From NCBI GenBank assembly GCA_025061115.1, contig JANZKC010000001.1:32001-96000 (forward strand): a DNA stretch of 64,000 bases, in the 5' to 3' direction. The notes under the pieces were generated by a model. It worked only from the letters and a program-made list of their open reading frames with translations, was not told where the DNA came from and made no database searches. Of the stretch, positions 1 to 61,043 are shown piece by piece (positions within the stretch are counted from its first letter, which is position 1; each line of letters begins with the position of its first letter). A program made the translations under genes and the position numbers. The DNA comes from Candidatus Culexmicrobium cathedralense (GTDB lineage Archaea > Thermoproteota > Methanomethylicia > Culexarchaeales > Culexmicrobiaceae).

Positions 1-1756
1 CAATTAACTCTTTACCTTTATCTTTAGATAGCTTGTCTATGATTAGTTTTCTTTGAGCTCTGAATGGACTTATGATTCCAATTTCTGATTTGCTTACTCC
101 ACATCTAATTAGCTCTCTTACTATTTCAACAGCTACTTCAGCTTCTTTTTCATTTAACCTTGAATTATCAACTACTTGATCCACTCCATGAACATGAACA
201 AATACTACTGGCTTCATACCATTAAGAAATTCATATTTGGGCTTAATTCTTAGATTTAGAACTTTGCTTGAGCACGATTTTGCTGCTTTAATCTTACCTT
301 CATAAACATATTTTGCTGAGAATCCTATGATGTCCGGATTACTTCTATAGTGAATTTGAAGCCATAAATGTCTATGATCATACTTGTCTTTTAGTCCTGA
401 AAATGCACTTAAACTTGTTCTCAACTTTAAATCCCTAACCGTCTTAAATATTGGTAATAGCTGTTTGTGGTCTCCAACTACTATCCACTTTTTACCTTTA
501 ACCATCGCTAGCAGTGCTAGTGTTATTGATGCTTGACTTGCCTCGTCAATAATTACTGTGTCAAATTGAATACCTATGAGTGGGGGGAGCTGAGACTTAA
601 TTAATGTTGATCCAATTATAGGGATTTCAAATATAAGTTCTTCACATTCCTTCCTTATCATTTGATTTCTAAGCTTAATTAACTCCCTTAACTCCATCTT
701 GTAGTTACTGATTATTTGCTTTAATCTCCTCTTCTCATGAACGCTCTTAGATCTTCTTAGCTCTTTAATTAAATTCTCAATGGCCTTAGAGTAATCTTTC
801 ACCTTCTTATCTATCTCTAAAATTTTTTGTCCGAGGCGCTGTCTAGCTTTATAACTTAGCAGATACTTTTTTATGTGTTCAAGAACTTTCTCTGGTCTAC
901 CAACCCTTAATGTTTTTTCTAATGGAAGAATTTCTACTGCATTATCTACTGCTCTATTAGTGTGTGATGAAATTAGTATTTTCTCGCCTCTCTTCATTAA
1001 CTCATAAGCTATTTTTGCTATAACTCTAGTTTTACCAGTTCCTGGAGGACCAACAATCAATAACAGTTCATTATCGTTAAGAGCTAGTGCAGCCTCAACA
1101 GCTTTAATTTGAGAGAAATCTAGCTCAAAGGCATCCTTAACATCTCTTGTGTTTTCTAATTTATGGTATTTTAATGATGGTTGCTCAAGACTGTCTAAAA
1201 CTAGTTCTATAGCATTTGGGTTGAATATTTGTATAATTGCTCTTTCAACATCTTTTTCTCCCTTTATTTGTTTAATTAAGTCTAATTGAAGATCATAGCT
1301 AATTAATGGTTCATAATCAAAGATTGTTATTGGCATGTCTTCTTTAATTAAATTGCTTGAAGTTAGTACTATTAATGTGTCTGAGTATGAATCAATTACT
1401 GTTCCTAGATATTCTGGTATAATCTCACCTTTAACTTTCAAAATTATTCCTATAGGATCTCCAGCTTGAAATTTCATTGCATACTTTGTCTCTGTTGTAG
1501 CAACTCCGTGAGATACATCGATTACCCTAGCTTCATAAACTTCCTTAAATGCTTCTCTTTTAGCATACCTTCTTTCCTTGCGAATTATCTCTTCTAAATA
1601 ATTTAGATTACTTAGTGATATTGCTGGTACTAATTTCTCTGCTAATTCAATTTGCTTTTTAAATCCACAATAAATGCAGTAAAGATATAGCTCACCATCC
1701 GATCTGCGTAATCTTAACAATCCATCACATTTAGGACAGAAATTAATTATATTCAT
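1..1756 (-). CDS. SF1B (Upf1/DNA2/IGHMBP2-like) helicase with N-terminal zinc ribbon; 3' end lies outside the window
   Basis: Translated by hand from ATG at 1756 (not in ORF track): MNIINFCPKCDGLLRL...YCIYCGF; Walker A VGPPGTGKT (1028-1051); motif Ia SHTNRAVDN; II VIIDEASQ; III GDHKQLLP; IV IHYRSNPDI; then NEKEA and GIISPFRAQ. Frame open to position 1. Confidence 0.93.
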   Translation of the reverse strand, partial: MNIINFCPKCDGLLRLRRSDGELYLYCIYCGFKKQIELAEKLVPAISLSNLNYLEEIIRKERRYAKREAFKEVYEARVIDVSHGVATTETKYAMKFQAGDPIGIILKVKGEIIPEYLGTVIDSYSDTLIVLTSSNLIKEDMPITIFDYEPLISYDLQLDLIKQIKGEKDVERAIIQIFNPNAIELVLDSLEQPSLKYHKLENTRDVKDAFELDFSQIKAVEAALALNDNELLLIVGPPGTGKTRVIAKIAYELMKRGEKILISSHTNRAVDNAVEILPLEKTLRVGRPEKVLEHIKKYLLSYKARQRLGQKILEIDKKVKDYSKAIENLIKELRRSKSVHEKRRLKQIISNYKMELRELIKLRNQMIRKECEELIFEIPIIGSTLIKSQLPPLIGIQFDTVIIDEASQASITLALLAMVKGKKWIVVGDHKQLLPIFKTVRDLKLRTSLSAFSGLKDKYDHRHLWLQIHYRSNPDIIGFSAKYVYEGKIKAAKSCSSKVLNLRIKPKYEFLNGMKPVVFVHVHGVDQVVDNSRLNEKEAEVAVEIVRELIRCGVSKSEIGIISPFRAQRKLIIDKLSKDKGKELI

Positions 1757-1767
1757 ATACGCCACCG

Positions 1768-2229
1768 TTAAATACTTAATTTTAAATTGAATTTCTTTTC
1801 AAATGCTTCTTTAATTAAATTAAAGTCGTGATGTGAAACTTCACCAATACCATATCCATCAATGTAATTCTCTATTTTTATAAAGTGGGTTAGTATTGGC
1901 TCTAGTGAGAAGATTATTATTGAAAATTCAATTTTCCATGGAAATAGTACTTTATTCTCTTTAATTTCAGCTGGCCAGATAGGGGTTTGATCATCATAAT
2001 GCTTACTTTTAATTAGACCAATTGCATGAATTTCACCAGTTCCAGCTATTTGAAATGTAGCGGAATCAAATGGTTTAATTTGATTATATAACCTAATGAA
2101 AGCCCTCCAATTTCTCCTCTGCTTATCACCTGCTTCCCTATCCCAAAACCCCCATAACAATCTTTTATATGCAACTTCAATATTGTCAATATTCCTCGAT
2201 GAGAATAGCCAGACTTTCACATAATTCAA
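1768..2229 (-). CDS. EVE/PUA-like domain protein (putative modified-base reader)
   Basis: WLF..N..N......LWG, IKPFD...F, G.I.S..Y.D.TPIWP.E......FPWKI pattern typical of archaeal EVE proteins; 11 bp upstream of the helicase. Confidence 0.75.
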   Translation of the reverse strand: MNYVKVWLFSSRNIDNIEVAYKRLLWGFWDREAGDKQRRNWRAFIRLYNQIKPFDSATFQIAGTGEIHAIGLIKSKHYDDQTPIWPAEIKENKVLFPWKIEFSIIIFSLEPILTHFIKIENYIDGYGIGEVSHHDFNLIKEAFEKKFNLKLSI

Positions 2230-2532
2230 TTTCTAAATTGATAAAAATAAGTTTACTGTTTAATTATTATCTCTTTAATAAAGAGCAAGATTGAGCATAA
2301 CGATATGAAGCTGAGAGACTTGGCAAATTAAAGAGGTTACTTCATTGAATTAGAAGGACTGGCTTCTTGGATGATGCCTAATATTTATCCGCCTAGACTT
2401 AAAGTAACAAGCTAACCCCATCTAAGACTTTTGTTATGTTCATAATTCAATGTCGAATTTTTGTTTAGATATTTAAATGATTAGAAGAAAATTTAAAGAA
2501 AAACATATATATCATCGAATTAAAGTTTAGTT

Positions 2533-3129
2533 ATGATGTCTAGTCGAATTTATTATATTGAAAAAGCAATTATGATTCTACTGATATGCGTAGTAATTTT
2601 AGAGGTCTTATTAAGTGCCAATACTTTTGCTTACGAACTTCTAGGTGGGAGGTGGACTGATAGTGATGTAAAGGATCTTTCTTATCGTGTTAAGTCGGGG
2701 ATACCTTATGTAAGTGATATACGTGAAGTGTTTGCAGATGCAGCAGCATCTTGGGAAAACACTGTAGCTTATGGTGTTCCACATTTCTATGAAGTAAGTT
2801 CGGGAGAGAAGATAATTGTGAATGCATATTATGAGGAGTATGGTGCATTAGCATATGCTTATGCGGATCCAAGCCTTTACGCCTATCCTTACGAGTATGC
2901 ATATATTCATGTAAATACATATTACTTAGATGTAGCTTATTACTTGAGTTATGAGCATTTTCAAGGTGTATTGGCACATGAAATAGGTCATATTCTTGGC
3001 TTAGCTCATGAAACAGAGTACGGACCAATAGTTTTAATGTGGCCAACTGATGAATTCTACATTGAATGTGGCATATATGAACCAACACTAGATGAAATTT
3101 ATGGCGTAATGGATCTTTATGGGGGTTAA
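2533..3129 (+). CDS. Secreted matrixin-like (M10) zinc metallopeptidase
   Basis: Signal peptide; HEIGHILGLAH zinc motif; Met-turn VLMWP; C-terminal DEIYGVMDLYG. Confidence 0.9.
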   Translation: MMSSRIYYIEKAIMILLICVVILEVLLSANTFAYELLGGRWTDSDVKDLSYRVKSGIPYVSDIREVFADAAASWENTVAYGVPHFYEVSSGEKIIVNAYYEEYGALAYAYADPSLYAYPYEYAYIHVNTYYLDVAYYLSYEHFQGVLAHEIGHILGLAHETEYGPIVLMWPTDEFYIECGIYEPTLDEIYGVMDLYGG

Positions 3130-3132
3130 TGC

Positions 3133-3789
3133 ATGGTTAGATTTAAATACTTTATTATTTTGAGTGGTCTAATAGTGGCATTAATGGTCTCTATTGGATC
3201 ATACATTCCAAGAGTTGAGGAATCAGAAAACATTATGATTTATGACATCTCAAATCTAAATAACGTTAAAATCGTTAAAGCATATGCTATCTATCCAAGC
3301 ATCATGTATAAGTCATTGACTTATCAAAAACTTCTTAGTGAAAGAGATTTAATTGCTATTGTAGAAATAAGTTATCCAATAAAAACATACCATGTTATAG
3401 AAAAGAACTTCTACTTTACATTATATAAAGCTAAGGTAATTAAGGTGATAAAGGGACCTAAAAATATTAGTGAAATATATTTGTATCAGATAGGTGGCTA
3501 TAAACCGGAAAGAAATGTTTTCTGGACTCTTGAAGGTCTACCGGTATTTAAGCCGGGTGAAAAATGGCTATTATTTATGAAGAAAATGACTTATGAAATG
3601 AATGCCAAAATAAACTTACCGCCAAACACGTATCATGCTGGAGGTTTAGAAGCAATAAAAGTAATTAATGGGAGAGTTTATTCGATGGATAATTTTGAGA
3701 AAATAGCAGAAATTGTATTGCCAGAACAATTAAAAGTAAAGGGCATACAACTACAAGAGTTCATAAACAGCATTCTAACAAAACCATAA
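3133..3789 (+). CDS. Membrane-anchored matrixin partner protein (possible TIMP/NTR-like OB fold)
   Basis: N-terminal TM helix; starts 3 bp after the matrixin stop; DLIAIVEI...YKAKVIKVIKG...PGEKWLLFM pattern. Confidence 0.7.
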   Translation: MVRFKYFIILSGLIVALMVSIGSYIPRVEESENIMIYDISNLNNVKIVKAYAIYPSIMYKSLTYQKLLSERDLIAIVEISYPIKTYHVIEKNFYFTLYKAKVIKVIKGPKNISEIYLYQIGGYKPERNVFWTLEGLPVFKPGEKWLLFMKKMTYEMNAKINLPPNTYHAGGLEAIKVINGRVYSMDNFEKIAEIVLPEQLKVKGIQLQEFINSILTKP

Positions 3790-4027
3790 TTTAACTTTAA
3801 CAAATAAAAGTTATTTTCACCTCCATTAAATTGTATAATATTGATGTTGACTGCAAATGAAAAACTCGAACGAAGCTTTTATAATATATATATGCTGTTC
3901 CGGTGACTGCTATTGCTGCTCAGAGAGGATGGAAGTTAGAATTTGCAATTTTTTCTTTAAGATTTAAATTTTATTATAACTTAATTAATAATGAAAAATT
4001 GGAATAAATTGTGTTGGGTGATTTAGC

Positions 4028-4492
4028 GTGAGATTTGAGGGTCATGCTGGTTTGTCTTTGTTGATTGTTTCTGTTGTTTTGTTTATTTTTGATTTTAGAA
4101 ATTATGAATCCATTATAGCTGGTTTGCTTGTTGTTGGTTTTTCTAGTTTACCTGATTTGGATTTAAGTTGGGAAATCCCGCATAGAAGATATACCCATAA
4201 TATTTTGTTTGGATTTATTTCTGGATTAATTTTTGGTTTCTTATTTATGTACAGTGGTTTGAATTTTGTATTAGGTTTTGTAGGTGGTTTTGGTGGAACC
4301 ATATGCCACTTAATTGGCGATAGTTTTACTTTTATGAAGTTTAAGCCATTATGGCCTTTTAGTAATCTCGAAGTTGGTTTGGGCTTTTTTAAGTCAAGCG
4401 ATGTGAAAATTAATGAAGTATTTCTCACTATTGGAGCTCTATCTTTCGTTTTCCTTTATGTGATTAAGCTTGGTATTTTAAAATTTCCTTAA
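4028..4492 (+). CDS. Membrane-bound metal-dependent hydrolase (YdjM/DUF457-like)
   Basis: GH, LPDLD, HRRYTH, HLIGD, PLWPF motifs. Confidence 0.88.
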   Translation: MRFEGHAGLSLLIVSVVLFIFDFRNYESIIAGLLVVGFSSLPDLDLSWEIPHRRYTHNILFGFISGLIFGFLFMYSGLNFVLGFVGGFGGTICHLIGDSFTFMKFKPLWPFSNLEVGLGFFKSSDVKINEVFLTIGALSFVFLYVIKLGILKFP

Positions 4493-4672
4493 CTATTATT
4501 AATTAATTCTTAAATATTTAATTTTTATATTGTTTAATTGAATTTTATATTAGATGTTTAGTTAGAATTGCTAAATCTTTTTTCTCTAGTGGTTGTTCTA
4601 CTTTTTCTGTTAGGGTTGTTCCGGTTGTTAGTGTTATTTCGATTGTTGTTGGCCATTTTGTTGGTTATTGTT

Positions 4673-4748
4673 AATTGTGCCCCGCCGCTGACACTCGACT
4701 TCATGGTTGGCTTTATGCCTCTTTGTCGAGCTCTTACCGGCGGGGCTG
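4673..4748 (-). ncRNA. Box H/ACA pseudouridylation guide sRNA (single hairpin), predicted target 23S rRNA helix 69
   Basis: Minus strand: GCCCCGCCG-GUAAGAG-CUCGAC-AAAGAGG...AUGAA-GUCGAG-UGUCAG-CGGCGGGGC-ACA-AUU. This gives a 9-bp basal stem, a pocket, a 6-bp upper stem, a K-turn-like element and an ACA box. TATA-like TTTAATA about 25 nt upstream; GC-rich island in an AT-rich spacer. Confidence 0.8.
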
Positions 4749-5005
4749 GGTTAAAAGGTGGTGAATGTTAGTATTAAATTTAATTTATTGTGTTGAGGAT
4801 AAGTGAAATTAGTAGTAATTTGGGTTGTTTGATCTTGGGTTATAAAGTGGATTTGCATCAGTCATCTATGTTTTTATGATTTCAATTTTGATTTGTTTAC
4901 TTTGTTTTGTGAAGATATTATGTTTAGGTTGATCCCTCCTCTCATGGAGGATGGTTTTCCTCTCGAGCGAGGATCATCTGTTTGTTTATTTTGTTAGTGG
5001 GTATA

Positions 5006-5417
5006 TTATTTTTGTTGTCCAGTTTTCCATGATATTTGTTTTAGTGTTAGTAGTTCTTCGTCGTGGGTGTATATTATTGGGATTCTGTTTGCTATGTAGT
5101 TGGCTATTATTAGGGCGTCTCTTCCGTCGAGGCTGTGTTTTGCTGCTAGGTTTAGGGCTATGTTGCATATTCTTTTTGTGTGGTTGTAGAATTCTATGTA
5201 TGGGTGATGTAGTAACATTTGTAATCTTCTTTTGGCTTCGGATGGTATCCATTTTTGGCTGTATACGAGTATGTAGTATGTTTCGTGTATTACTGTTGGG
5301 TTGATTGCTATGCGGTTTTCTGGTGTTAGGTTAATAGGAGTGTTTTGAGTTTTTGTGTTCTGGATAGGCTGGGTCGAGAGCGTAGCATAGTATGTTAGTG
5401 TCTAGTCTTGTGATCAA
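5006..5417 (-). pseudogene. vapC: Frameshifted PIN-domain (VapC) toxin
   Basis: TTG start MITRLDTNILCYALD; frameshift near an A-run at about 5350; later frame ...VIHETY...LDGRDALIIA...IYTHD. Confidence 0.8.
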
Positions 5418-5655
5418 TTAGGTTGGCCTTCATATCGCTTTCATTTTTGATGGTGACCAGTTTTCCGGTTTTCCTGTTCTTGGTGGCTCTGATGTTATTA
5501 TTCTTTTGAATTCTTCTAGAAAGTTTATTGTTTTTCCTGGTTTTAGTATGTAGCCTCTTCTACTTTTCTAGGATGATGGAGTCTCCTATTTCTTCTCTTA
5601 CTTCTCTTGGGAGGTAGATTCGTCCTTTTGAATCTACTTTTAATTTGTACTGCAT
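5418..5655 (-). pseudogene. Frameshifted AbrB/MazE-type antitoxin
   Basis: MQYKLKVDSKGRIYLPREVREEIG (AbrB signature), then frameshift at GAAAAG (~5565) and a TGA near the 3' end. Confidence 0.8.
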
Positions 5656-5923
5656 TTCCAACTAATATTTTTGGGATTTTCTTTATCTTTAGTCTTTCGT
5701 GATGGTGTTATTGTTGATTAAGTATGGTTAAACTATATGGACTGATTCGCTGGATTTTATTGGGGTTTAGGCTTTGGATGAAGTTGGAAAGTTTTTGAGA
5801 TGGAGCTTCGTGGTGGGGATTTTGTTTTAAAGTATTGTGGTGCATATACGTTGAGTTGGTTGTGTAGAAATTCTCCGTTTCAAAACTAGTTTTCTCTATT
5901 GATTTTATTATAGAATTGTTAAT

Positions 5924-6364
5924 TTATTGATTAGTTAGCCATGGACTTAAAATCCTATGTCCTTCATTTATTCCTCTTAATTTCTCTACAAGCTCTCTAT
6001 CAATAGTTAATAATTTTACGCCATATCTTTCCGCTAATGCTAGGAATAGTGCATCGTAAACTGTGACTTTAAGTTTTATTGATAGTTTTATGGCTTCCTG
6101 GATATAGTCGAGATCTCTGTGAGTTATGCATATGTTTTTCATGAATTCATGAAGTAATTCGAGATTCTTTAAGACGATATTGCTTGGCTGCTTAAATACC
6201 ATTATTCTCTTCCAAGCGGCATTACTTGTTTCTAGGAAAGCTAGTTCAGGTATGTGAATTTCAATATATCTTTTAACCTCTTTTTCACACCACTCACTAT
6301 AGTCCTCCGGGAAGAACAGTGCGAAGAGAGCTGAGCTGTCAATGACAATGCTTTTAATGCTCAC
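5924..6364 (-). CDS. vapC: PIN-domain VapC toxin
   Basis: IVIDSSA, E..NA.W, TVYDALFLALA, LLTID motifs. Confidence 0.92.
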   Translation of the reverse strand: MSIKSIVIDSSALFALFFPEDYSEWCEKEVKRYIEIHIPELAFLETSNAAWKRIMVFKQPSNIVLKNLELLHEFMKNICITHRDLDYIQEAIKLSIKLKVTVYDALFLALAERYGVKLLTIDRELVEKLRGINEGHRILSPWLTNQ

Positions 6365-6581
6365 GTTCCCTATCCTCGCGAATCATTCTATCAACTGGTA
6401 CTGGTAGCTTTGATAATTGTCTACGCGCATCACGAGCAGCTTTAAGATATGCTTCCATTAAGATTTCCCTCACCCTTCTAGCAATAAATTGTCTAACCTC
6501 TTTGCTCCAATCAACATTTTCACATTTATCCATCAATTCCTTGAGTCTTTTTGAAACTCTTATGCTTATGACAGTGCTCAT
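6354..6581 (-). CDS. vapB: Ribbon-helix-helix antitoxin (VapB-like)
   Basis: MSTVISIRVSKRLKELMD...VDWSKEVRQFI...IREDRE; overlaps the vapC start. Confidence 0.85.
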   Translation of the reverse strand: MSTVISIRVSKRLKELMDKCENVDWSKEVRQFIARRVREILMEAYLKAARDARRQLSKLPVPVDRMIREDREREH

Positions 6582-6809
6582 AATACATTACCTGTAGACA
6601 ATGAATGTATACTTTAATATAAGCATTTCCTAAACAAATATTAATTTACATTCTCATTTAGTAAGAGCTTAGGCTTTTGCAACTATATTTCCCAACGACC
6701 CAAGAATCTTAGCAACACATAAAGAGGCAGAATATAAATCTTTAACATCAATTTTATAGTCCTCAACAACTTCACTATAGGAGGCACTACTTATGACTGA
6801 AACTTGAAT

Positions 6810-7313
6810 TTATAGTTGTGTTTTAACTATATTTTTATGATCCTCCAGTTGTAGTATGTGTTTCATAATTGTTAGACCAATGTAGGTGATACCTGCTATC
6901 AATATTAGCCATACTCCTATTCCCGGATAGTATTTGTAATACTCCACACCCTCCATTCCCTGAATTACTATTTTCATACTTGAGATAATTGTTCCTGCAA
7001 ACCAGAGGTATGATGAAATTATTGCCGATAAACTACTAATCACCGCAATTTTCCAATCTTTTTTGAAAAGTGATAGCATGCAAAAGAGAATTGATGCTGC
7101 GTAGAGAATGATAGAGGAAATGGCATGTAAAAATCCTTTTTCACTGTAGATTGGTGTTGAAGTATCAAGGAATGAAAAACTTTTAACAATAATAACTTTA
7201 AAACCAGGTTTTATATCATCATACTCGTATGTCCAGGGTAGGAAAGCTGATATTAGTAGAATAATTAGAGTTAAGAGTGATGCTCTATCTGTTATTATCT
7301 TGAGTACTTTTAT
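6810..7313 (-). CDS. Hypothetical multi-pass membrane protein (start uncertain)
   Basis: Frame of track ORF 6810..7079 stays open to 7358 with further TM segments (LIILLISAFLPW); AGGAGG RBS precedes an in-frame ATA at 7313. Confidence 0.6.
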   Translation of the reverse strand: MKVLKIITDRASLLTLIILLISAFLPWTYEYDDIKPGFKVIIVKSFSFLDTSTPIYSEKGFLHAISSIILYAASILFCMLSLFKKDWKIAVISSLSAIISSYLWFAGTIISSMKIVIQGMEGVEYYKYYPGIGVWLILIAGITYIGLTIMKHILQLEDHKNIVKTQL

Positions 7314-7363
7314 GAAAATCCTCCTACCCTTCTCTATTATGGTGATACCCCCACTGATTTAAG

Positions 7364-7861
7364 TTAATCAACTCCAATAACATAAATATTCTCTACTCCA
7401 TCTGGTTCTGATGGTATTTCATATTCATTTAATGCTATTACCCTTATATTATAATAAGTCCCGCTTGGTGATGTAGATGAATCCCAGTAACCAACCCATA
7501 ATCCTAGAGTTGAGTCATAAAACATTGATTGCCTGCCAGAATTGTAATTCGTATTATAGACATGATAATCCACTGAGCTTATGGTTATTGTAGATGTAAC
7601 TTCAGCTTGAATCTTCACAATTCCAGAAACAGTTTCACCATCGTATGGGTAGACTATATTTACAACCGGTCTTGATACTATTGGATAAAGATATATTACA
7701 CCTCTAATATCCCCTAAATTAAGGTCATGTTTTAATCCAGTATAGTGATAGTACATTACTTGATAATAATTATCATCCAAGTAAAGGTCCTTTAAACCTA
7801 TGACATGGCCTACTTCATGAGTAGCTGCAGTCTGTACATCATAGTCATTCCCATACTTCCC
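7364..7861 (-). pseudogene. 5'-truncated matrixin-like metallopeptidase with C-terminal Ig-like domain
   Basis: Frame extends upstream of the track ORF: YDVQTAATHEVGHVIGLKDLY (7787-7819), then VMYY Met-turn and Ig-like VNIVYPYDGETVSG. In-frame TAA at 7862-7864; no start codon or signal peptide. Confidence 0.75.
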
Positions 7862-7872
7862 TTATCACCTTT

Positions 7873-8625
7873 TTAGCTTATTCTTTTTATTAGTGTTTTT
7901 TCGTGTATTTTTATTGCAGTGATTAGGAATGTTATTGTGAAGATTATAAGGGCTGTGTAGTTTATTATGGGTGGGTAGTAGCCTTTGTTTAGGATTAGTT
8001 GTCTTGTTAGGTCTGTGTAGTAGGTAAGGGGTGAAAGTGAGGCTATTATTCTTGCCCATGGTGGTAGTTTTTCTATTGGGATGAATATTCCGCTTATGAA
8101 TATTAGTGGGAATTTTATGAGGGTTGAGATCATCATTATGGTTGCTGGTATGTCTGTTGGTGGGTATGATGATAGGAGTATGCTTAGTGCTGAGAAGCAT
8201 AGTGTTGCTAGGGTTAGGCTGAAGAGTAGTGATATGAAGTTTATGGGGTTTATGTTTAGGGTTAATGTTAGGGTTGTTGGTATTAGTGTTATTAGGAATC
8301 CGAAGATGAATGATGATAGCATGTCTCCCAGTAGGATTGCCCATAGGGTTATTGGGCAGCATAGGAGTCTTTCAAGTGTTTTTGATCTTGCTTCCCATGG
8401 TATTATGGATGGTCCTACTGATGTTGCTGTGAAGAAGGCTGTCATGCTTATTAGTTTTGATAGCATTTCTTTTATGGGCATTTCTCTTCCTATTGTGTAG
8501 GCTAGGAATAGGAAGAGTGGGAGAATTAGGCCGAATATTACTACTGGTCCCTTTGAGTAGTAAATTTTTATGTCTTTCTTCGCTATTGTCATGGAGCGTT
8601 TAACTTGTTTGAGTATATGATTCAT
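7873..8625 (-). CDS. ABC-2 type transporter permease
   Basis: Six TM segments; E....TLERLL..P; FISGIFIPIEKLPPW...SPLTY. Confidence 0.93.
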   Translation of the reverse strand: MNHILKQVKRSMTIAKKDIKIYYSKGPVVIFGLILPLFLFLAYTIGREMPIKEMLSKLISMTAFFTATSVGPSIIPWEARSKTLERLLCCPITLWAILLGDMLSSFIFGFLITLIPTTLTLTLNINPINFISLLFSLTLATLCFSALSILLSSYPPTDIPATIMMISTLIKFPLIFISGIFIPIEKLPPWARIIASLSPLTYYTDLTRQLILNKGYYPPIINYTALIIFTITFLITAIKIHEKTLIKRIS

Positions 8626-36373: not shown

Positions 36374-37795
36374 CTATTTTTGCCAAATGTCCAGTGGCGG
36401 CTTTACTTCTGGCGGAATTGGCGACCTATACTTTCTGCCTCTAAGTCTTCTTCTATGTTCCTCTTGTGCTTTTTGAAGTATTTCAGGTTTAGTTAGTAGG
36501 TCTAATGCTGTTGCAGCCATGATTTTAGCAGCAAAGATAAGCGATTTACGGGATATGCCTGCTCCGCTTTGAGCAGTAGCTTGCCATGAGTGGCCAGGCG
36601 TTCCCAGAACCCAAGATGCTGTGCTAAATTCCACTGTTGGAGCCTGCCAGCTTACATCTGCTACATCAGTTGAACCATACATTACTTCTCCTTCGCCCCA
36701 TGGATCTGGAACTTCATCATCTATAAGTTTATCAACTAATCTCTCCCATCCGGGTCTCTTAGATTTTCTAAGTTGATTTATTTTCATCTCGGGAGTTATT
36801 GTCTTAGCTATTTCCTTTGCAAAATTCAGCTCTTCCTCATCATATTTTGGTAAGCCTATTTCCCTCATGTTCTTAACTATAAGCTCGGCTATTGTTCTGT
36901 TAGGTATTAAGTTGTAGGCTCCTCCAATAAATTCAATTTTAACTTCAGTTCTTGTCATTAATGCAGCTCCTTTAGCTATATCAAGGATCCAATTGTAAAT
37001 GTGTTCTACTTGATCTCTTTCAGGTGCTCTTATGTAATACCAGCTTCGGGCATAGTCTGGAACTATGTTTGGCTGGGCTCCGCCCTTCTCGATTACGTAA
37101 TGGATTCTTGCTTCTTGGCTTACATGCTCGCGCAGGTAGTTTACTCCTATATTCATGAGCTCAACAGCGTCAAGCGCACTTCTACCTTCTTCTGGCGATG
37201 CAGCAGCGTGACTTGCTTTACCGTAGAAGTGGAATTTAACTGAATTTACTGCTAAGCAGCTTTTCAGGGTTACTGCATTCATCGTTCCTGGATGATGACT
37301 TATGATTGCATCTACATCCTTGAAGCATCCTTCCCTCACCATGTAGACTTTTCCATCGAAGTTTTCTTCCGCTGGGCATCCGAAGAACTTTATCGTTCCC
37401 TTCAATCCATGCTTCTTCATAGCTATTTTAACGGCTATGGCAGCTGCAGCTCCAGAAGTTCCATGCAAATTGTGTCCGCAGCCATGGCCTGGGGCTCCTG
37501 GAACTAAAGGCTCTTTCCATGGAACTTTCTTTTGTGATAGTCCTGGTAGTGCGTCGTATTCTCCCATTATTCCTATTACTGGTTTTCCTTCACCCCACGT
37601 GGCAATGAAGGCTGTTGGCATACCAGCAACTCCACGCTCAACCTTAAAGCCGTGGCGCTCCAATTCATCAGCTAATAGTGCTGATGATTTGAATTCAATT
37701 AGTCCTAGTTCTGCATACTCCCAAATTTTATCGCTGATCTCAATAATTCGACCCTTATTCTCCTCAATCCACTTAAAGGCGGTTTCCTTAACCAT
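36374..37795 (-). CDS. M20D amidohydrolase (p-aminobenzoyl-glutamate hydrolase AbgB-like)
   Basis: EYDALPG, HGCGHN, PAEE, GRSALDA, GSTDVADVSW, HSWQ. Confidence 0.92.
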   Translation of the reverse strand: MVKETAFKWIEENKGRIIEISDKIWEYAELGLIEFKSSALLADELERHGFKVERGVAGMPTAFIATWGEGKPVIGIMGEYDALPGLSQKKVPWKEPLVPGAPGHGCGHNLHGTSGAAAAIAVKIAMKKHGLKGTIKFFGCPAEENFDGKVYMVREGCFKDVDAIISHHPGTMNAVTLKSCLAVNSVKFHFYGKASHAAASPEEGRSALDAVELMNIGVNYLREHVSQEARIHYVIEKGGAQPNIVPDYARSWYYIRAPERDQVEHIYNWILDIAKGAALMTRTEVKIEFIGGAYNLIPNRTIAELIVKNMREIGLPKYDEEELNFAKEIAKTITPEMKINQLRKSKRPGWERLVDKLIDDEVPDPWGEGEVMYGSTDVADVSWQAPTVEFSTASWVLGTPGHSWQATAQSGAGISRKSLIFAAKIMAATALDLLTKPEILQKAQEEHRRRLRGRKYRSPIPPEVKPPLDIWQK

Positions 37796-37879
37796 TAAAA
37801 TTCACCTGGAGTTGACTATATTAGCTTAGCTAATAAAGCTTTAAGATTTGACATTATCAACTAAATTTTATTTCTCTGC

Positions 37880-38485
37880 TCACATTCTCCGATACAACTT
37901 CAGTGCAGTATGGATATTCCAGATGGAAGCTGATATTGAAGATAGAAGTTCAGGTATTGCTACACCATGTATTCCATAAGTTTTCCATGGAATCAGCCAT
38001 GGAAAGATTGCGAGTACTGCAAGTATGAGGGTTGCTGCACCCAACTTAATCTCCCTGCATTCTTTAATTAGAGAAATTGCAAAAAAGATTAGCGAAATTG
38101 GAGTTAAAGTAAAGAATGAAAGCGAAACGTAAAAGTGAATTCTCCCAGCACTTTCTGGAAATACGCCTATTAATGCTAGGGATGTTGATGAAGCGAAATA
38201 AAAAGTAGATCCAATAACGCCTATAAGGCCATTAAAGTAATTTGAAAGGCTGAATGTAAAAATAATTTGTATCGCTCCAGCTAAAATCAATCCAAAATTA
38301 AATATATATGCGGAGCTCTTCCACACACCTAAATCGCTTAAAGCATTTTTAAACCAGGAGAAATGCGGCATTTGCATGATCGCTAAGGCTATGGACGAAT
38401 ATGCAATTGCAGGAGCAATAAATCCGCAGATAGCAAAGTACTTTAATTTCATGCTCAAAATCATAACCTCAAATGAAATTATCAT
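37880..38485 (-). CDS. DUF998 family membrane protein
   Basis: FSW..NALSDLG...FN.GL...IGVFPE...H...S..FF...AIPE. Confidence 0.85.
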   Translation of the reverse strand: MIISFEVMILSMKLKYFAICGFIAPAIAYSSIALAIMQMPHFSWFKNALSDLGVWKSSAYIFNFGLILAGAIQIIFTFSLSNYFNGLIGVIGSTFYFASSTSLALIGVFPESAGRIHFYVSLSFFTLTPISLIFFAISLIKECREIKLGAATLILAVLAIFPWLIPWKTYGIHGVAIPELLSSISASIWNIHTALKLYRRM

Positions 38486-38536
38486 ATGCTACTTAAAATT
38501 TAAATTTTGAATTGCGATTGATAAGTTTTAATTTGG

Positions 38537-39715
38537 CTAGTGACTTGCAAACCTATTAGCAAGGTCTACCAATTGAACCGTAATTAATGATGCCGCTGGA
38601 AATATTGGGAGAAGCCACAAGATGGACGTATAGCCGCCACTATATTCAATTAGTAAGCCGAAGAGGATTGGTCCAATTAGGAAGCCAAGTTCAAATGCGA
38701 TTGAATATATGCCGGACCCTAGGCCACGCATTTCAGATGGAAGCCCCCCTAAAGCTAGTAATTGAATTGCTGGAACGGTTAGTCCTAAACCCACGCCAAA
38801 TATCGTAGCACATAGATATGCAGTTGGCGGTAAGTAGTTTGAAGTTAACAGCACGTATGCTAGGGTAATCAGAGCTAATCCACTGGAAGCAATGTGTATC
38901 GGTCCTTTGCGATCTGCAATTTTTCCACTAGTAGCTCTAGCTATGATGCTTGAGCCCCCTTGAACACTAGCATAAATACCGTAAATACTAGCTCCAAATC
39001 CAATTTCATTATAAATTGCTGGAAGAAAAGTGTTTAAGGCACTATATGAAGTGGCGTAAAGTGCAACAGCAATCATTGCACCGGTGAAATTTAATGTTAG
39101 AAGCTTCTTGACATTCCTAACCTTACTTCCAAAAAGTTTATCGTTTGATTTTAGCATCCCCTTCGCCCACCGAGCTGCCAGAGAGAGAATTAGAATTGAA
39201 ACTAAAGTTAAGGCAAATGAGCTAATGAAAGTTGCTCTATAATCTAAAATGTCCGACAAGTAGCCACCCAATCCAGGGCCTAAAAGCTGGCTTACACCAA
39301 ACATCGTGCTCCTCCAACCCAAAATTTCGCCAATGCGATTTAGTGGAGCTAGATCCATAGCTGTTGAAATTGAAGAGGGCAAAAATGAGGCTGAAGCTAA
39401 ACCTTGAATTATCCTAGCAACGGCAAATAGCAGTAGGTTGTTTGAAGCAGCATAAATGAGTGAGGCAATGCAGCTTAATATGCAGCCTAACATCATCATC
39501 TCAAATCTATGACCTCTATCACTTATGAAGCCGAAGATTGGCCTCATAATAATTGCAGTGGCTGATGTAAGAGCGGATAATAATCCTAGAACTGCTGGAG
39601 TAGCACCCAGATTAATAGCGTATGGCGAAATTATGGGAGCTATAACCGTAACTGCGAAAAAGTACGTAAACGTCGCTAGTAAAACTGACCATATTGCTTT
39701 CGGCTGACTGCCCAT
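38537..39715 (-). CDS. MFS transporter
   Basis: GFISDRG, ARIIQG, GKIADRKG. Confidence 0.92.
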   Translation of the reverse strand: MGSQPKAIWSVLLATFTYFFAVTVIAPIISPYAINLGATPAVLGLLSALTSATAIIMRPIFGFISDRGHRFEMMMLGCILSCIASLIYAASNNLLLFAVARIIQGLASASFLPSSISTAMDLAPLNRIGEILGWRSTMFGVSQLLGPGLGGYLSDILDYRATFISSFALTLVSILILSLAARWAKGMLKSNDKLFGSKVRNVKKLLTLNFTGAMIAVALYATSYSALNTFLPAIYNEIGFGASIYGIYASVQGGSSIIARATSGKIADRKGPIHIASSGLALITLAYVLLTSNYLPPTAYLCATIFGVGLGLTVPAIQLLALGGLPSEMRGLGSGIYSIAFELGFLIGPILFGLLIEYSGGYTSILWLLPIFPAASLITVQLVDLANRFASH

Positions 39716-39807
39716 GGGAAGTCCCCGTCATTGATGGATTAACTAGATTAATCGAAGGTGAATTATAAAGATTTTCCAGCAAGCTATCCTTTATGCGCAA
39801 TGCATAC

Positions 39808-41004
39808 TTACATGAAGCTGAAAATTGCAATTGCAAACAATATTGTAGAAATCATGCTTGGAAGCAAATACTTATAAACTTTATCCATTGAGCATTCAAA
39901 GTACTGAGCGGTGTACACAAAACAGAGGTGAGCTGGGGATCCGATGTAACTAACATAGGATGATACAAACAGAATATTCACATCATTAATTAGCAGGTGT
40001 TTAAATCCACTCATAATTGGCAGCGAAATTACTATGCCAGTTAATGGAGATCCAGTTGAAATGCTTATAACGGCCGGCATAAGTATCTCCAACACAATTA
40101 ACGGAACACCGCTTGAAGAAAGTGCTTCAGTTATTAGCTGAGAAGCTCCAGACAATATAAATGCCTTTTGTATGTACATTATGCCAAATGCAGCCAAACC
40201 GATGCCCAAAACTCTCCTATTAAGGAAAGAGTTGCACAGCATACTCTTGCAGGGCTTTACAATTAAAGTTAAAATTAAAATACCTAGAAAGATTCCTAGA
40301 ACCATACCCCAATCGCCTACACATATTTTTAGGAGAATAGCTGAAACTAAAGCTGTTATTAATGGGGCAGATGTCATGCTCAACGGCTTAGAATTAACTT
40401 TTAGTGAAGCCTTACCAGAGGATTTTGCGCTTCTCAAAGCAAGTAGGTAACCAACCATTATCATAAATATTGCAACTGGAAGCTGCCTCAAAATCAAGCT
40501 TTCAATGGAATAGCCTGATAGCGTTGCAGTTACAATAACTAGTTGGCTTATCGGATATACGAGAAATATCGTGTGCCTGAACCAGACGTTAGAGTAAACG
40601 GCTAAAGAGCTGGTGAAGCCCAGATCGGAGCTTAATACACCTATTATGGGGGCTGACATTAATGCTCCACCAGCAACTGGAAGCAAACCTATAACAGCTG
40701 GAGTTAAAATTACTGCAATCTTCGAATTTCTCAATGTACGAATAATTCCCAGCCCTAAGTCCTCTATTAGCTTGCTCAACCGATAAAGCTCAGCCAGTGA
40801 AGCAATGCCGATGGAAATTGCAATTAAAAACCAAGTTCTGTTGGAACTCAATGTCACCGCCAATATATCTAGAAAGTTTTCGGGTGAAAGCGCTAATGTA
40901 ATAATAGCGGCTGCCGTGATGAGGGCGAAGCCAATTTCAATTCCCAATTTAATTAGGATTAAGGCCAACGCTAGAGCCACTATTACTATGGCCAGCATTA
41001 GCAT
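39808..41004 (-). CDS. DUF401 family membrane protein
   Basis: PA.IGLLP..GGA.MSAP, N.WFRH....YP, SP.HLC. Confidence 0.88.
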   Translation of the reverse strand: MLMLAIVIVALALALILIKLGIEIGFALITAAAIITLALSPENFLDILAVTLSSNRTWFLIAISIGIASLAELYRLSKLIEDLGLGIIRTLRNSKIAVILTPAVIGLLPVAGGALMSAPIIGVLSSDLGFTSSLAVYSNVWFRHTIFLVYPISQLVIVTATLSGYSIESLILRQLPVAIFMIMVGYLLALRSAKSSGKASLKVNSKPLSMTSAPLITALVSAILLKICVGDWGMVLGIFLGILILTLIVKPCKSMLCNSFLNRRVLGIGLAAFGIMYIQKAFILSGASQLITEALSSSGVPLIVLEILMPAVISISTGSPLTGIVISLPIMSGFKHLLINDVNILFVSSYVSYIGSPAHLCFVYTAQYFECSMDKVYKYLLPSMISTILFAIAIFSFM

Positions 41005-41175
41005 GGAATTTGCACCTCAACTACTAGCTGCGCATTAACTTAACAAAATGCGGCAAAATCCACTCAAAAAACTTTTGGTTCAATATATTATAATACATTT
41101 ACATTATCATAATATTTTAATTTTTACTAAAAATAAATATAAAAGTGTTATAGTGAGAAATTATGATCTACACTT

Positions 41176-43050
41176 TCATACTGACATGCCAAGCACGTTG
41201 TAGATAAATGCCAGTATATCGGCGTTCTCTTTAATTTTTGTTTTGGGCGTTGCTCCTGAATGTCCACTTGAGGTTTCTACTCTCAAGTAGATTGGAGCGT
41301 TTACTTCCTTGAGTTTTGCCACGAATTTGAAGGCATGTGCTGGATGTACTCTGTCGTCGTGGAGTCCAGTGTATACTATTGTTGGTGGGTACTTGGCTCT
41401 ACGAACGTTATGATATGGAGAATACTTAATGAGAAATTCCGCATCCTTCGGATTTTCTGGATCCCCATACTCTGGAATCCAGGCTTTACCAATGTAGAGC
41501 TTGTGGAACCTTAACATATCTATGACAGGATATCCTATAACTGCTCCATCCAATAGTTCGGGTTTTTGAGTGAGAACTGCACTTACTAGTAAGCCGCCGT
41601 TACTTCTACCTGTAGCTACTACTTTAGCGCCCTTATCTTTAAAGTACTTTATTGCTGCCATGAAGTCGTTGAAAACGTTTTGCTTTTTATCTCTCATTCC
41701 ATCCTTATGCCACTTTTCGCCATATTCTAGCCCTCCACGTATATTGGCTACTACATACACTCCTCCATCCTCAATGAAGGGCATTATACTTGGCTCAAAA
41801 ACAGGTGTTTTTGAAATTCTAAAGCCACCATACCCGTAAATTAGCACATTATCAAGCTTCGCATCACTCTTCTTTGCAATGAACATGTGTATTTTTGTTC
41901 CATCAGTTGATGTTGTCCATGCTTCTTCAATTACGTAATCACCTCTAATTTCTTTTGAGTCTATTAGCCTGAACGCCTCGCCGTTATAAGCGTACAATCG
42001 ATATGGCGTGAAGAATGATTCGTAAATGAAAGCTGCTTCATCTTCAATTGAATTTAAAGATCGAATTGTTCCTGGAACAGGAAAATTCACTTCATCTACA
42101 AGCTTGCCCGTAAATGTGAATGATTTGATAAGTGATGCTGCGTCTTTGAGGTAGTGGACGATTATCCTTCCATTAGCTGTGACTGCTTCTTGAAGTGGAC
42201 ATTTCTGCTCATCAATGATTGTCTCGATCACATTGTCAGATACTTTTAATATTTTGCCAAGTCCGTCATCCTCATAAGAAGCTATCAAGTATGCTTGATC
42301 CACATAATCTATGGGATTTGCAATAAATTTGCCACCATAAATTTTATTCCAGCTTTCGGGATTCTTCAATTCTCCTCCATAAACAGTGCTTTTACTCCAG
42401 CCGTATCTGACTGTAACGAGAGCCTTTGAATCATCGCTTGAAGATTTTATGTCAATGAAGTGTGAGGTAGGGATACCTTCACCCCAAACTACTTCATCTT
42501 TGCCATTTTCTCTAATTAATACTCTAGTAGTTGGAGGGGAAACTCCGTCAGGAGGAGGCTCTTCACGGAATAACTTGACGTAATAATAACTGTCTTTGTT
42601 AAGCCAAACTATCCCCCAAATAACGCCCTTTAGCTCGTCTACTACCTCTCTAGTATCTACATCAATTATCTTCAATGCTCCTACATCTGCACCTCCATAA
42701 GAGTAGGAGAATGCCAGTCGATCTCCTTCTTTAGATGCATGAATTCTCTGAATAACTGCATCTTCACCTAGATCTCTTGAATCTATGAGCTCTATAATTT
42801 CGCCGCTTCGCTTGTAAAGTTTGATTTTGAAGGATTCTTCTTCACGTATAAGTGCAAAGTATCCTCGCCTTGATATTGAAGTCATGACGATATGGAGAAT
42901 TGAATAGTACTTGGCTATTCTAGGCTCAAGCTTGCGGGATAATTGCCTTAAGAAATCACTTGTACGCTTGTGCTCATTTAAAGCCCAATTTAAAACCTTA
43001 GGGTCTTTAAGATTCTCCATCCATAAATAAGGATCTTCCAGTACGCTCAT
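41176..43050 (-). CDS. Prolyl oligopeptidase (S9A)
   Basis: EDPYLWME, YGYGGF, RGG.EYG, GRSNGG, HDDRV, GH. Confidence 0.95.
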   Translation of the reverse strand: MSVLEDPYLWMENLKDPKVLNWALNEHKRTSDFLRQLSRKLEPRIAKYYSILHIVMTSISRRGYFALIREEESFKIKLYKRSGEIIELIDSRDLGEDAVIQRIHASKEGDRLAFSYSYGGADVGALKIIDVDTREVVDELKGVIWGIVWLNKDSYYYVKLFREEPPPDGVSPPTTRVLIRENGKDEVVWGEGIPTSHFIDIKSSSDDSKALVTVRYGWSKSTVYGGELKNPESWNKIYGGKFIANPIDYVDQAYLIASYEDDGLGKILKVSDNVIETIIDEQKCPLQEAVTANGRIIVHYLKDAASLIKSFTFTGKLVDEVNFPVPGTIRSLNSIEDEAAFIYESFFTPYRLYAYNGEAFRLIDSKEIRGDYVIEEAWTTSTDGTKIHMFIAKKSDAKLDNVLIYGYGGFRISKTPVFEPSIMPFIEDGGVYVVANIRGGLEYGEKWHKDGMRDKKQNVFNDFMAAIKYFKDKGAKVVATGRSNGGLLVSAVLTQKPELLDGAVIGYPVIDMLRFHKLYIGKAWIPEYGDPENPKDAEFLIKYSPYHNVRRAKYPPTIVYTGLHDDRVHPAHAFKFVAKLKEVNAPIYLRVETSSGHSGATPKTKIKENADILAFIYNVLGMSV

Positions 43051-59510: not shown

Positions 59511-61043
59511 ATGCCACAGTTTAAAAGCATAATTGAAGAGGAAGTTGAGGAACCATCCTTGAAGAGGGGATTAAGCCTATACAGCCTATTCTCCATAGGA
59601 TATGCGGATGTTGGAGCAGATGTCTATATTGCGTTAGGCGTAACTGCCATGTTTGCCGCTGGCGGTACACCTCTAGCATTTTTAATTGGATCAATACTCT
59701 ATATCTGCATTGGATTAGCCTACGCTGAACTAGCTTCAACCTATCCATATGCAGGCGGCGCTTCAGTTTACGCAATGATGGCCACAAATGACTTAATAGG
59801 CTTTCTCGCAGGATGGCTCGTAATGCTTGACTACGTTATAGATATTGCATTATTTTCGGTGGCAGCTGCAGGTTACTTGGGATTTGTATTTCCATGGCTT
59901 CTTAAATCGTCTCTGCCAACTCCATTAGGCGTAAGCTTATCTATGATAGGTATAGCGGCTATCGCGATCATAGCAGGTCTTGTGATCGTAAATTACATTG
60001 GGATCAAGCCTTCTGCAGCATTAACAGTTATCCTAGTAACTGGTAATCTTGCCATTTTATCGATGGTCCTAGGCTTAGGATATACAACAACTTGGAACTT
60101 TGAAAAATTCGTTACCAATTTAGCCGAAATTGGTGGCGACTTCATCAGCGAAGAAGTGGGCTATACAGGTTTACTAAGTGTACGTTTTGAGAATTTCCTT
60201 TACGGCTTAACGCTAGCCATGTCATCATTCATTGGAATAGAATCAATCGCACAAGCAGCTGAAGAAGCTGAAAAGCCTTACAAGAATTTATCTAAAGCAG
60301 CTGGAATTTCAGTTATCATGGTCGTAGTGTCAGTATTGAGTTGCTCTATACTTGGGTTAGGAGTACTAGGATGGAGAGGACTTGCAGAAGCTCAATTCAA
60401 TCCAGTTGCAGCCATCGTTGAGCGAGTCCCAATCATTGGATCACATGCAGCTATGCTGGTAGCTATAGTTGCTTTTGCCATGACAGTAGCATCAACAAAT
60501 ACAGGCGTAATAGGAGTTTCAAGACTAGTATTCTCAATGGGGAAATTCCTCCTACTTCCAAGGTGGTTTTACAAAGTTCATCCAAAATTTAGAACGCCAA
60601 CAAGAAGCATACTAATGTTCTCTGCAATAGCAATAGTTGTGGTTCTTTGGGGAGCACTTCAGCCGAACATTCTAGTGTTCATTTCAAGCCTATACAATTT
60701 CGGAGCACTCCTATCGTACATACTCGTCCTACTAGCACTCATCATACTTAGAAATGATGATAGAAAAACTAAGAGGCTCTACAAAGCACCAGGCACAATA
60801 ATAGTAAGGAGAAATGGCAAAATAATTGAGCTCCCAATTCTAGGCATTATTGGACTCATAGGAATTGGGAGCGTATGGCTATTAGTAGTTATATACCATA
60901 CAACTGCGAGAATTATGGGCTTCACATGGATCCTAATTGGATTGATCATCTACTCAATCTATAGGAGAAGAATCAACCTCTCAATAACTTCAAAGTTTGG
61001 AAGAGAAATGCTCGGTATTAAAGAGAACAACAATTCAAATTAA
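59511..61043 (+). CDS. APC family amino acid permease
   Basis: YADVGA..Y, YAELAS.YP.AGG, GIESIAQ.AEE, SRL.FSMG...HPKFRTP. Confidence 0.92.
   Translation: MPQFKSIIEEEVEEPSLKRGLSLYSLFSIGYADVGADVYIALGVTAMFAAGGTPLAFLIGSILYICIGLAYAELASTYPYAGGASVYAMMATNDLIGFLAGWLVMLDYVIDIALFSVAAAGYLGFVFPWLLKSSLPTPLGVSLSMIGIAAIAIIAGLVIVNYIGIKPSAALTVILVTGNLAILSMVLGLGYTTTWNFEKFVTNLAEIGGDFISEEVGYTGLLSVRFENFLYGLTLAMSSFIGIESIAQAAEEAEKPYKNLSKAAGISVIMVVVSVLSCSILGLGVLGWRGLAEAQFNPVAAIVERVPIIGSHAAMLVAIVAFAMTVASTNTGVIGVSRLVFSMGKFLLLPRWFYKVHPKFRTPTRSILMFSAIAIVVVLWGALQPNILVFISSLYNFGALLSYILVLLALIILRNDDRKTKRLYKAPGTIIVRRNGKIIELPILGIIGLIGIGSVWLLVVIYHTTARIMGFTWILIGLIIYSIYRRRINLSITSKFGREMLGIKENNNSN

Follow-up and report, generated by a model that had tools for sequence, protein, structure and literature searches.

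The DNA analysed here is a stretch of 64,000 nucleotides from the archaeon Candidatus Culexmicrobium cathedralense (contig JANZKC010000001.1, positions 32,001 to 96,000 of the forward strand), which we refer to as the window. Close to its start lie two genes on the + strand, both confirmed in the list of open reading frames (ORFs). The first encodes a protease of 198 residues resembling the matrixins, and the second, here called the partner, a protein of 218 residues which carries an N-terminal membrane helix and whose exported part is predicted to fold like one of the tissue inhibitors of metalloproteinases (TIMPs). TIMPs are the physiological inhibitors of matrixins in animals, and are treated as animal proteins. 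An earlier note, made from the letters of the sequence, had proposed that the two genes form a possible prokaryotic counterpart of the pair of matrix metalloproteinase (MMP) and TIMP. The features of the locus are collected in Table 1.

Table 1. Features of the two-gene locus, in window coordinates
Feature	Position	Strand	Basis and remarks
AT-rich intergenic region	2230..2532	+	GC 0.274; TTTAAA/TATATA-like stretches readable; presumed to serve both genes as promoter
Matrixin-like (M10A-type) zinc metalloprotease gene, 198 aa, catalytic domain only	2533..3129	+	PF00413, MMP alignments
Predicted matrixin signal peptide, residues 1-33	2533..2631	+	Hydrophobic segment, Kyte-Doolittle 2.62; mature N-terminus predicted at Tyr34
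Zinc motif HEIGHILGLAH (His149, Glu150, His153, His159; residues 149-159)	2977..3009	+	Read from sequence
Met-turn VLMWP (Met169; residues 167-171)	3031..3045	+	Read from sequence; aligns to ALMYP of MMP-20 and MMP-8
GGGGGT, Shine-Dalgarno-like	3121..3126	+	6 nt before the partner ATG, within the final matrixin codons; putative function
Partner gene, 218 aa: N-terminal membrane helix and exported TIMP/NTR-fold domain (model), no Cys	3133..3789	+	ORF, model, Foldseek
Partner N-terminal hydrophobic helix, residues 2-23: signal-anchor, or uncleaved or cleaved signal peptide	3136..3201	+	Model; Kyte-Doolittle
Partner exported domain, residues 29-218	3217..3786	+	Model: beta-hairpin 34-50, two short helices 56-70, long-stranded barrel 73-183, C-terminal helices 190-216

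The two genes are very closely spaced. The TAA stop codon of the matrixin gene occupies positions 3127-3129 and the partner ATG is at 3133, leaving a gap of 3 bp. Because of this gap, the Shine-Dalgarno-like motif just before the partner ATG, and the presence of a sizeable AT-rich spacer (2230-2532) solely 5' of the matrixin gene, the two probably form one transcription unit in which translation of the second gene is coupled to that of the first. The GC contents at third codon positions (GC3) are also similar, at 0.241 and 0.269.

Judged from its sequence, the product of the first gene is a true matrixin, far beyond a chance HEXXH motif, because it matches the Pfam Matrixin family (PF00413) above the gathering cut-off (30.3 bits versus 24, E 4.5e-7) and aligns over the full catalytic domain to MMPs. 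A phmmer search against PDB sequences gave 113 distinct chains at E<=1, and among the 60 listed all are vertebrate MMP catalytic domains. The best match was MMP-20 (E 4.5e-7), with residues 48-197 of the query on residues 9-159 of a 160-residue chain, a span that takes in both the zinc motif and the Met-turn; residues 48-197 also align to MMP-8 and MMP-13, and residues 50-197 to MMP-10. NCBIfam returned sub-threshold metzincin models only. In a profile search, 14 relatives of the matrixin were found at E<=1e-3 among 1764 candidates, of which 13 carry PF00413; their lengths range from 126 to 206 aa, or from 179 to 206 aa if the truncated protein P0005 is left out. The active site appears intact, and H149, E150, H153 and H159 are invariant in 13/13 aligned family members. 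The description in the earlier note, a secreted MMP-like protease with this zinc motif and a Met-turn, encoded 3 bp ahead of a membrane-anchored protein, is therefore upheld by the Pfam match, the MMP alignment, the signal peptide, the ORFs and the hydrophobic helix of the partner.

Cleavage of the matrixin signal peptide is predicted at a junction of the form A-[YF]-E, which 9 of the 13 aligned relatives have between the hydrophobic N-terminus and a GGxW block; in the window protein it reads AYE, with the break after the alanine. A cysteine-switch prodomain is typical of animal MMPs, and is not required for the matrixin family. Here there is no room for one, because the catalytic domain directly follows the signal peptide: the alignment to MMP catalytic domains already begins at residue 48, and just the 33 residues of that peptide stand ahead of the conserved mature N-terminus. 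With the prodomain missing, some other control of latency is plausible for this protease. Genes for peptide and amino-acid utilisation are found elsewhere in the window (36374..43050 and 59511..61043), among them those of an M20 amidohydrolase, a protein resembling S9 oligopeptidase B and an amino-acid permease; they are consistent with an organism living by the breakdown of peptides, to which the secretion of a matrixin would be suited.

The partner belongs to an undescribed family of exported proteins that has no Pfam entry. It matched no Pfam family at E<=1 and, by phmmer, no PDB sequence at E<=10; NCBIfam gave a sub-threshold match to KefG only (17.5 bits versus 240). A word-indexed search returned only the protein itself, one 99% variant and one 77% relative. 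An exhaustive search of 1.84 billion representatives, unrestricted in length, yielded 24 partner-family proteins at E<=1e-3 (16 of them at <=1e-10), and since all of these are 68-235 aa long, fused forms of the partner were rejected. Their source names, where present, are ‘hypothetical protein’, and one comes from Candidatus Culexmicrobium profundum. No match was seen by tblastn of the partner against plasmids, and a PHROGs search with 25 family members gave three single-member matches, none meaningful (E>=0.027).

Within the family the most conserved columns are G108, F148, P137, K107, G122, L146, F210 and T96, and residues ∼50-60 are poorly conserved. A strongly hydrophobic N-terminal segment, with a Kyte-Doolittle value of 2.33 over residues 7-25 in the partner itself, is present in 15 of the 25 members; the ORFs of the remaining 10 are short or truncated at the 5' end. 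The partner contains no cysteine at all, and hence no lipobox Cys, nor does any alignment position hold a conserved Cys across the 25 members, 10 of which lack the residue altogether.

The structure of the partner is modelled with great confidence. The AlphaFold2 model of the full-length protein, built from a 25-sequence alignment, has a mean predicted local distance difference test score (pLDDT) of 92.3 and a predicted template modelling score (pTM) of 0.81, and that of the ectodomain (m3d3a2c9df77a, residues 29-218) a pLDDT of 95.1 and a pTM of 0.90. In the full-length model the N-terminal helix is followed by a short low-confidence linker (residues 26-28). When this model was compared with the PDB by Foldseek, ranks 1-37 (36 of them listed) were all chains bearing an NTR module, the top kinds being agrin NtA, TIMP-2, TIMP-1, N-TIMP-3, the PCOLCE NTR domain, C5 C345C, and chains of C3, C4, C5 and CVF. 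The ectodomain model gave the same NTR-bearing kinds at ranks 1-29 (28 listed). The complement chains presumably align through their C345C domain, as they must where the PDB entry is that domain alone. The best E values were 2.0e-3 (full-length) and 2.5e-3 (ectodomain), with a probability of 1.00 for the first rows; TM scores normalised by target were 0.45-0.52 for N-TIMP and NtA (maximum 0.51 for the full-length and 0.52 for the ectodomain model), at 10-18% identity. A fold search of the BFVD library of viral structures reached an E of 0.11 at best.

The ESM Atlas independently points in the same direction, with the reservation that scores below 0.9 are leads only. The clusters nearest to the partner are bacterial hypothetical proteins (0.95), and the four nearest clusters bearing a Pfam family all belong to the TIMP clan (0.79-0.84): a Bacteroidota cluster, 25% of whose members bear PF00965 (0.84), NtA (0.82), TIMP/NTR (0.80) and C3 NTR (0.79). 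The same pattern of TIMP-clan clusters was obtained for P0028, a distant member of the partner family.

The partner is thus predicted to contain an OB-type barrel with flanking helices of the TIMP/NTR kind, although the matches are weak and the likeness is one of fold, so that the guess of a TIMP/NTR fold made in the earlier note held at that level. The same note had aligned segments of the partner by eye with TIMP-1. As a claim of sequence similarity this could not be confirmed, there being no PDB, profile or Pfam match, but the chosen segments (residues 69-79, 94-108, 112-118 and 141-150) do land on modelled strands of the barrel (E73-88, E93-107, E114-124 and E144-155). Its remark that the N-terminal Cys-X-Cys of TIMPs is missing was correct. 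The disulphides are missing as well, and the barrel begins ∼60 residues past the membrane helix. In comparison with vertebrate TIMPs and NTR modules, which are the best PDB structural matches to the barrel and its flanking helices, the partner therefore differs in having no sequence similarity, no Cys-X-Cys, no disulphides, and about 60 extra N-terminal residues together with a membrane helix.

The closest described arrangement is the Mtz-Tim pair of Listeria monocytogenes (LMRG_00713/LMRG_00714; Boichis et al. 2021), in which a secreted metzincin is followed by a downstream, membrane-anchored protein of TIMP fold (PMC8235301). In many Gram-positive bacteria mtz and tim occur consistently as a pair, in the vicinity of mobile-element genes; Mtz, when catalytically active, trims about 50 residues from the N-terminus of Tim (cutting at aa 49-55), and the Listeria phenotypes, a sensitisation to cell-wall-targeting agents, need both proteins (PMC8235301). 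Boichis et al. report that they came across no previous description of TIMP-like proteins in bacteria (PMC8235301). The proposal of a prokaryotic MMP-TIMP pair at the present locus accordingly stands as regards arrangement and fold, but not as a first case, which the 2021 description of mtz-tim precedes (PMC8235301).

The likeness of the window pair to Mtz-Tim is one of gene arrangement and predicted fold, set by the published description and not by sequence comparison. In both, the gene of a metzincin with a signal peptide, an extended zinc motif and a Met-turn is followed directly, on the same strand, by a gene without a promoter of its own, and the product of that gene is exported, anchored in the membrane and TIMP-like by predicted structure rather than by sequence. 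Both loci also look accessory, the Listeria pair being linked to mobile elements and the present one lying where GC is low and where toxin-antitoxin genes and gene remnants abound. Unlike the Listeria pair, the window pair has an archaeal and not a Firmicute host, its anchor is a helix without a lipobox Cys, its protease is recognised as a matrixin at the Pfam level, and its pairing is not conserved in the relatives examined. When the matrixin and the proteins P0028, P0029 and P0036 were compared by tblastn with phages, the result was noise at E 0.3 from a Gordonia sliding clamp, or nothing, and phage PSA has no such gene pair downstream of its lysin.

A second point of comparison is PotA of Tannerella forsythia, an OB-fold lipoprotein of 98 residues whose gene adjoins that of karilysin, a bacterial MMP; PotA blocks the cleft of karilysin with two loops and a zinc-binding Asp (PMC9890683). 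TIMPs share the OB scaffold with PotA and are otherwise unrelated to it (PMC9890683). As in the window, an MMP-type peptidase is linked to a small anchored protein of OB fold, and PotA inhibits by loops and not by its N-terminus. It differs from the partner in being encoded upstream, in its 98 residues and in being a lipoprotein, whereas the partner is encoded downstream, has 218 aa and lacks a lipobox. The partner accordingly departs from the potempin type, a minimal OB lipoprotein of five strands whose gene directly precedes that of its peptidase, and no potempin chain is among the 47 PDB fold matches listed in either Foldseek search.

The serralysin inhibitors AprI and Inh are periplasmic eight-stranded barrels which insert their N-terminus into the active site of the protease. 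Their fold differs from that of the partner, and none of them is among the fold matches listed for it. They resemble the present case in that an M10-family protease has a proteinaceous neighbour, which in Pseudomonas and related bacteria is an operon-encoded cognate inhibitor (PMC8235301).

Taken together, the close spacing, the two exported products, the protease without a prodomain and the inhibitor-type fold favour the interpretation that the partner is a cognate, surface-tethered regulator of the matrixin, in a co-transcribed export module of the mtz-tim kind. We hold this tentatively, at a probability of roughly 40%, the linkage of the two genes being fragile. In such a module the minimal matrixin would be exported as a catalytic domain alone, lacking a prodomain that could impose latency, and the translationally coupled second gene would supply a protein that its N-terminal helix holds at the cytoplasmic membrane, on the outer side. 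The exported, cysteine-free barrel of the TIMP/NTR type would bind the freshly exported matrixin and restrain it near the membrane, and may act as a non-canonical inhibitor or latency factor, shielding the envelope of the cell itself. Contact would be made through surface loops, as by PotA on karilysin, and not through the amino group of Cys1 as in TIMPs, and the protease may in turn clip the partner from its anchor, as happens to Tim in Listeria. That a TIMP-like fold should stand by chance beside the very class of enzyme that it regulates seems unlikely, although no number was computed. What would be new here is an archaeal, cysteine-free, helix-anchored variant of a module described in Firmicutes, and not the first prokaryotic pair.

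Two groups of observations weigh against this interpretation. The first concerns the fold and what can be concluded from it. The structural similarity is moderate, with no match at E<=1e-3 and root mean square deviations of 5-9 Å. None of the 25 partner-family members matches the TIMP, NTR or NtA models (PF00965, PF01759 and PF03146) at E<=10, and a search of PDB sequences with the family profile found only two unrelated chains (E 0.69 and 0.77) and no TIMP chain. Because there is no such sequence or profile link, and no conserved cysteine, the modelled ectodomain is to be regarded as resembling TIMP/NTR at the level of the fold only, and the partner is not a member of the TIMP family, MEROPS I35. 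Moreover, an NTR fold does not imply inhibition, and proteins that have it are often not inhibitors: the NTR domain of PCPE-1 is reported not to inhibit MMP-2, BMP-1 or ADAMTS enzymes (PMC2871463), and NtA is, by its PDB title, a laminin-binding domain. Even for the Listeria pair, inhibition of Mtz by Tim is a proposal, and what was demonstrated is cleavage (PMC8235301). Finally, the nearest look-alikes in the ESM Atlas are widespread bacterial hypothetical exported proteins, which can hardly all be partners of matrixins.

The second group concerns the linkage of the two genes. A scan of genome contigs for partner loci, made with a 5-sequence alignment, gave 134 pattern matches and two confirmed loci (L001 and L002), so the comparison covers the context of two of the 24 partner-family representatives, plus a sister strain. 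Both loci come from archaeal metagenome-assembled genomes, labelled Nitrososphaerota and Methanomethylicia (the latter being L002), and their partner proteins are 77% (L001) and 39% (L002) identical to that of the window. Neither contains a matrixin within the 8.6 kb (L001) and 12.6 kb (L002) available, either in the ORF lists or by tblastn at E<=10, which gave noise only. The neighbours are unrelated: L001 has an M24 peptidase, an SDR protein, a DUF4013 protein and a HepT/MNT pair, and L002 has GDT1, a flavodoxin, an MFS transporter and an exported protein without assignment. The DNA similarity between the window and L001 (83%) covers 3133..3765 only and begins exactly at the partner ATG; therefore, the two genes do not travel together there. 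In L002, the gene of a 231-aa protein that matches no Pfam family and begins with a hydrophobic segment (6681..7376, - strand) stands convergent to the partner homologue, 47 bp from it.

In the sister strain, the partner P0002 is intact and 99% identical (5 contigs), whereas the matrixin P0005 (7 contigs) is reduced to 126 aa by an apparent 1-nt frameshift near position 2870-2873 and lacks the zinc motif. P0005 agrees with the window sequence up to residue ∼113 and, from nt 2873 on, reads the window's +1 frame as far as a stop. The longest contig of both clusters has 158,483 bases, which suggests that P0002 and P0005 lie on one contig. Hence the partner exists and persists without an intact adjacent matrixin, being unaccompanied by one in L001 and L002 and standing beside a frameshifted one in the sister strain. 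Consistent pairing of the two genes was not found among these relatives, and the co-occurrence in other genomes that the earlier note had named as a check gave 0/2 related loci. Such loose linkage would be compatible with a partner whose target protease has its gene at another place, as is the case for animal TIMPs.

The same observations argue for regarding the two genes as chance or recent neighbours, the partner being an exported protein of OB fold that has its own task, for instance in the envelope or in ligand binding, upstream of which a horizontally acquired matrixin has landed. Archaeal MMPs are already known, are sparse, and have been attributed to recent horizontal transfer (PMC12587646), and the low-GC surroundings with their toxin-antitoxin genes and remnants, as well as the abundance of look-alike proteins in bacteria, would also suit such an origin. 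Nevertheless we consider it somewhat unlikely. The 3-bp spacing and the Shine-Dalgarno-like motif suggest a single operon, the GC3 values do not set the two genes apart, the best PDB fold match is the very fold of matrixin inhibitors, and the same gene order and type of fold are conserved in Gram-positive bacteria (PMC8235301).

It is less probable, though still worth considering, that the pair works by release of a substrate as in Listeria. The matrixin would then cut the tether of the partner (within residues ∼24-60), and the freed fragment of TIMP fold would act on the envelope or on neighbouring cells, with no inhibition involved. Trimming of Tim by Mtz is the sole interaction that has been shown by experiment for such a pair (PMC8235301), and the partner does have about 60 residues between its anchor and its barrel, including the low-confidence linker. 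However, residues 34-70 are modelled with high confidence as a folded domain and not as a free linker, and archaea do not have peptidoglycan of the kind affected in Listeria.

A canonical TIMP mechanism, in which the N-terminal part is removed and the catalytic zinc is then chelated by the new amino group in the manner of Cys1 in TIMPs, is very improbable: beyond the resemblance of fold it could appeal to the position of TIMP residue 1, which, if the by-eye alignment of the earlier note is right, would fall near partner residue 56, close to the cut in Tim (PMC8235301), but the protein has no cysteine and hence no disulphide of the Cys1-Cys70 type to hold the wedge, the region around residues 50-60 is poorly conserved, and there is no evidence of processing. 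We give equally little credence to the idea that the partner serves as a dock at the membrane or as an aid to folding, which retains or matures the prodomain-less protease at the surface without inhibiting it; the membrane anchor and the arrangement for co-translation would fit, but we know of no precedent for foldases of NTR fold. In T. forsythia, PotA is reported not to have contributed to the secretion or maturation of prokarilysin (PMC9890683).

We return to the favoured interpretation, that the partner is a regulator of the matrixin, and to what would follow from it. An evolutionary study of TIMPs in Metazoa makes, by a search for the terms, no mention of bacteria or archaea (PMC10755359), and a phylogeny of MMPs, which argues for a bacterial origin and for transfers to animals and archaea, by the same kind of search does not mention TIMPs (PMC12587646). 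No case of an archaeal TIMP-like protein was found in the literature searched, subscription journals being outside its reach. A second and remote case of a metzincin together with a TIMP fold would suggest that the pairing of protease and regulator is repeated or ancient in prokaryotes, and the partner would offer a cysteine-free, probably heat-tolerant scaffold on which to study the engagement of a matrixin by an NTR barrel that lacks the Cys1 wedge. If the pairing is accidental, the finding is that of a new family of exported OB-fold proteins beside one more archaeal matrixin. A far bolder proposal is that modules of metzincin and TIMP fold are old and widespread in prokaryotes, from mobile elements of Firmicutes to archaea of the TACK type, that the cysteine-free barrel is ancestral, that the MMP-TIMP system of animals descended from such a module, and that the partner family is the first proteinaceous regulator of matrixins in archaea. 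We regard this as quite improbable; were it true, TIMPs would not be a metazoan novelty.

The surroundings of the two genes have a GC content of 0.32-0.34 over 1-8 kb, compared with 0.373 for the window, and are rich in toxin-antitoxin genes and gene remnants, which points to a variable, accessory region. The possibility of a further intact pair in the window was considered and rejected: the matrixin-like sequence at 7367..7861 (- strand) is a remnant without a TIMP-like neighbour. It matches PF00413 at profile positions 105-158 only (20.8 bits, below the cut-off of 24), and consists of the last third of a catalytic domain, with the zinc motif HEVGHVIGLKD (its third His replaced by Asp), followed by an Ig-like domain of the Big_7 family. 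Two stop codons stand directly upstream of it, and the space expected for its N-terminal part is filled by an ABC permease gene (7873..8625).

Upstream of the pair, and divergent from the matrixin gene, lie the genes of a 153-aa protein with a weak PRK00809-like match (1768..2229, - strand) and of a superfamily-1 helicase (AAA_11/AAA_12) that is rich in Cys near its N-terminus (2..1765, - strand) and runs off the start of the window. Downstream, 238 bp past the partner, is a gene for an inner-membrane protein of the YdjM family (4028..4492, + strand; PF04307, E 1.5e-13), with no evident link to the pair. It is followed by a G+T-rich + strand stretch (4568..5900) that contains low-complexity ORFs only and looks like decayed genes; GC skew is +0.31 and AT skew -0.40 over 4001-6000. 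Within this stretch, a 70-aa ORF on the - strand (5006..5218) resembles, by eye, the C-terminal piece of a PIN-domain protein. Beyond it (5924..6581, - strand), a PIN-domain, VapC-like gene (PF01850, E 3.1e-14) overlaps a small upstream ORF of 75 aa, and the two are probably a VapBC toxin-antitoxin pair.

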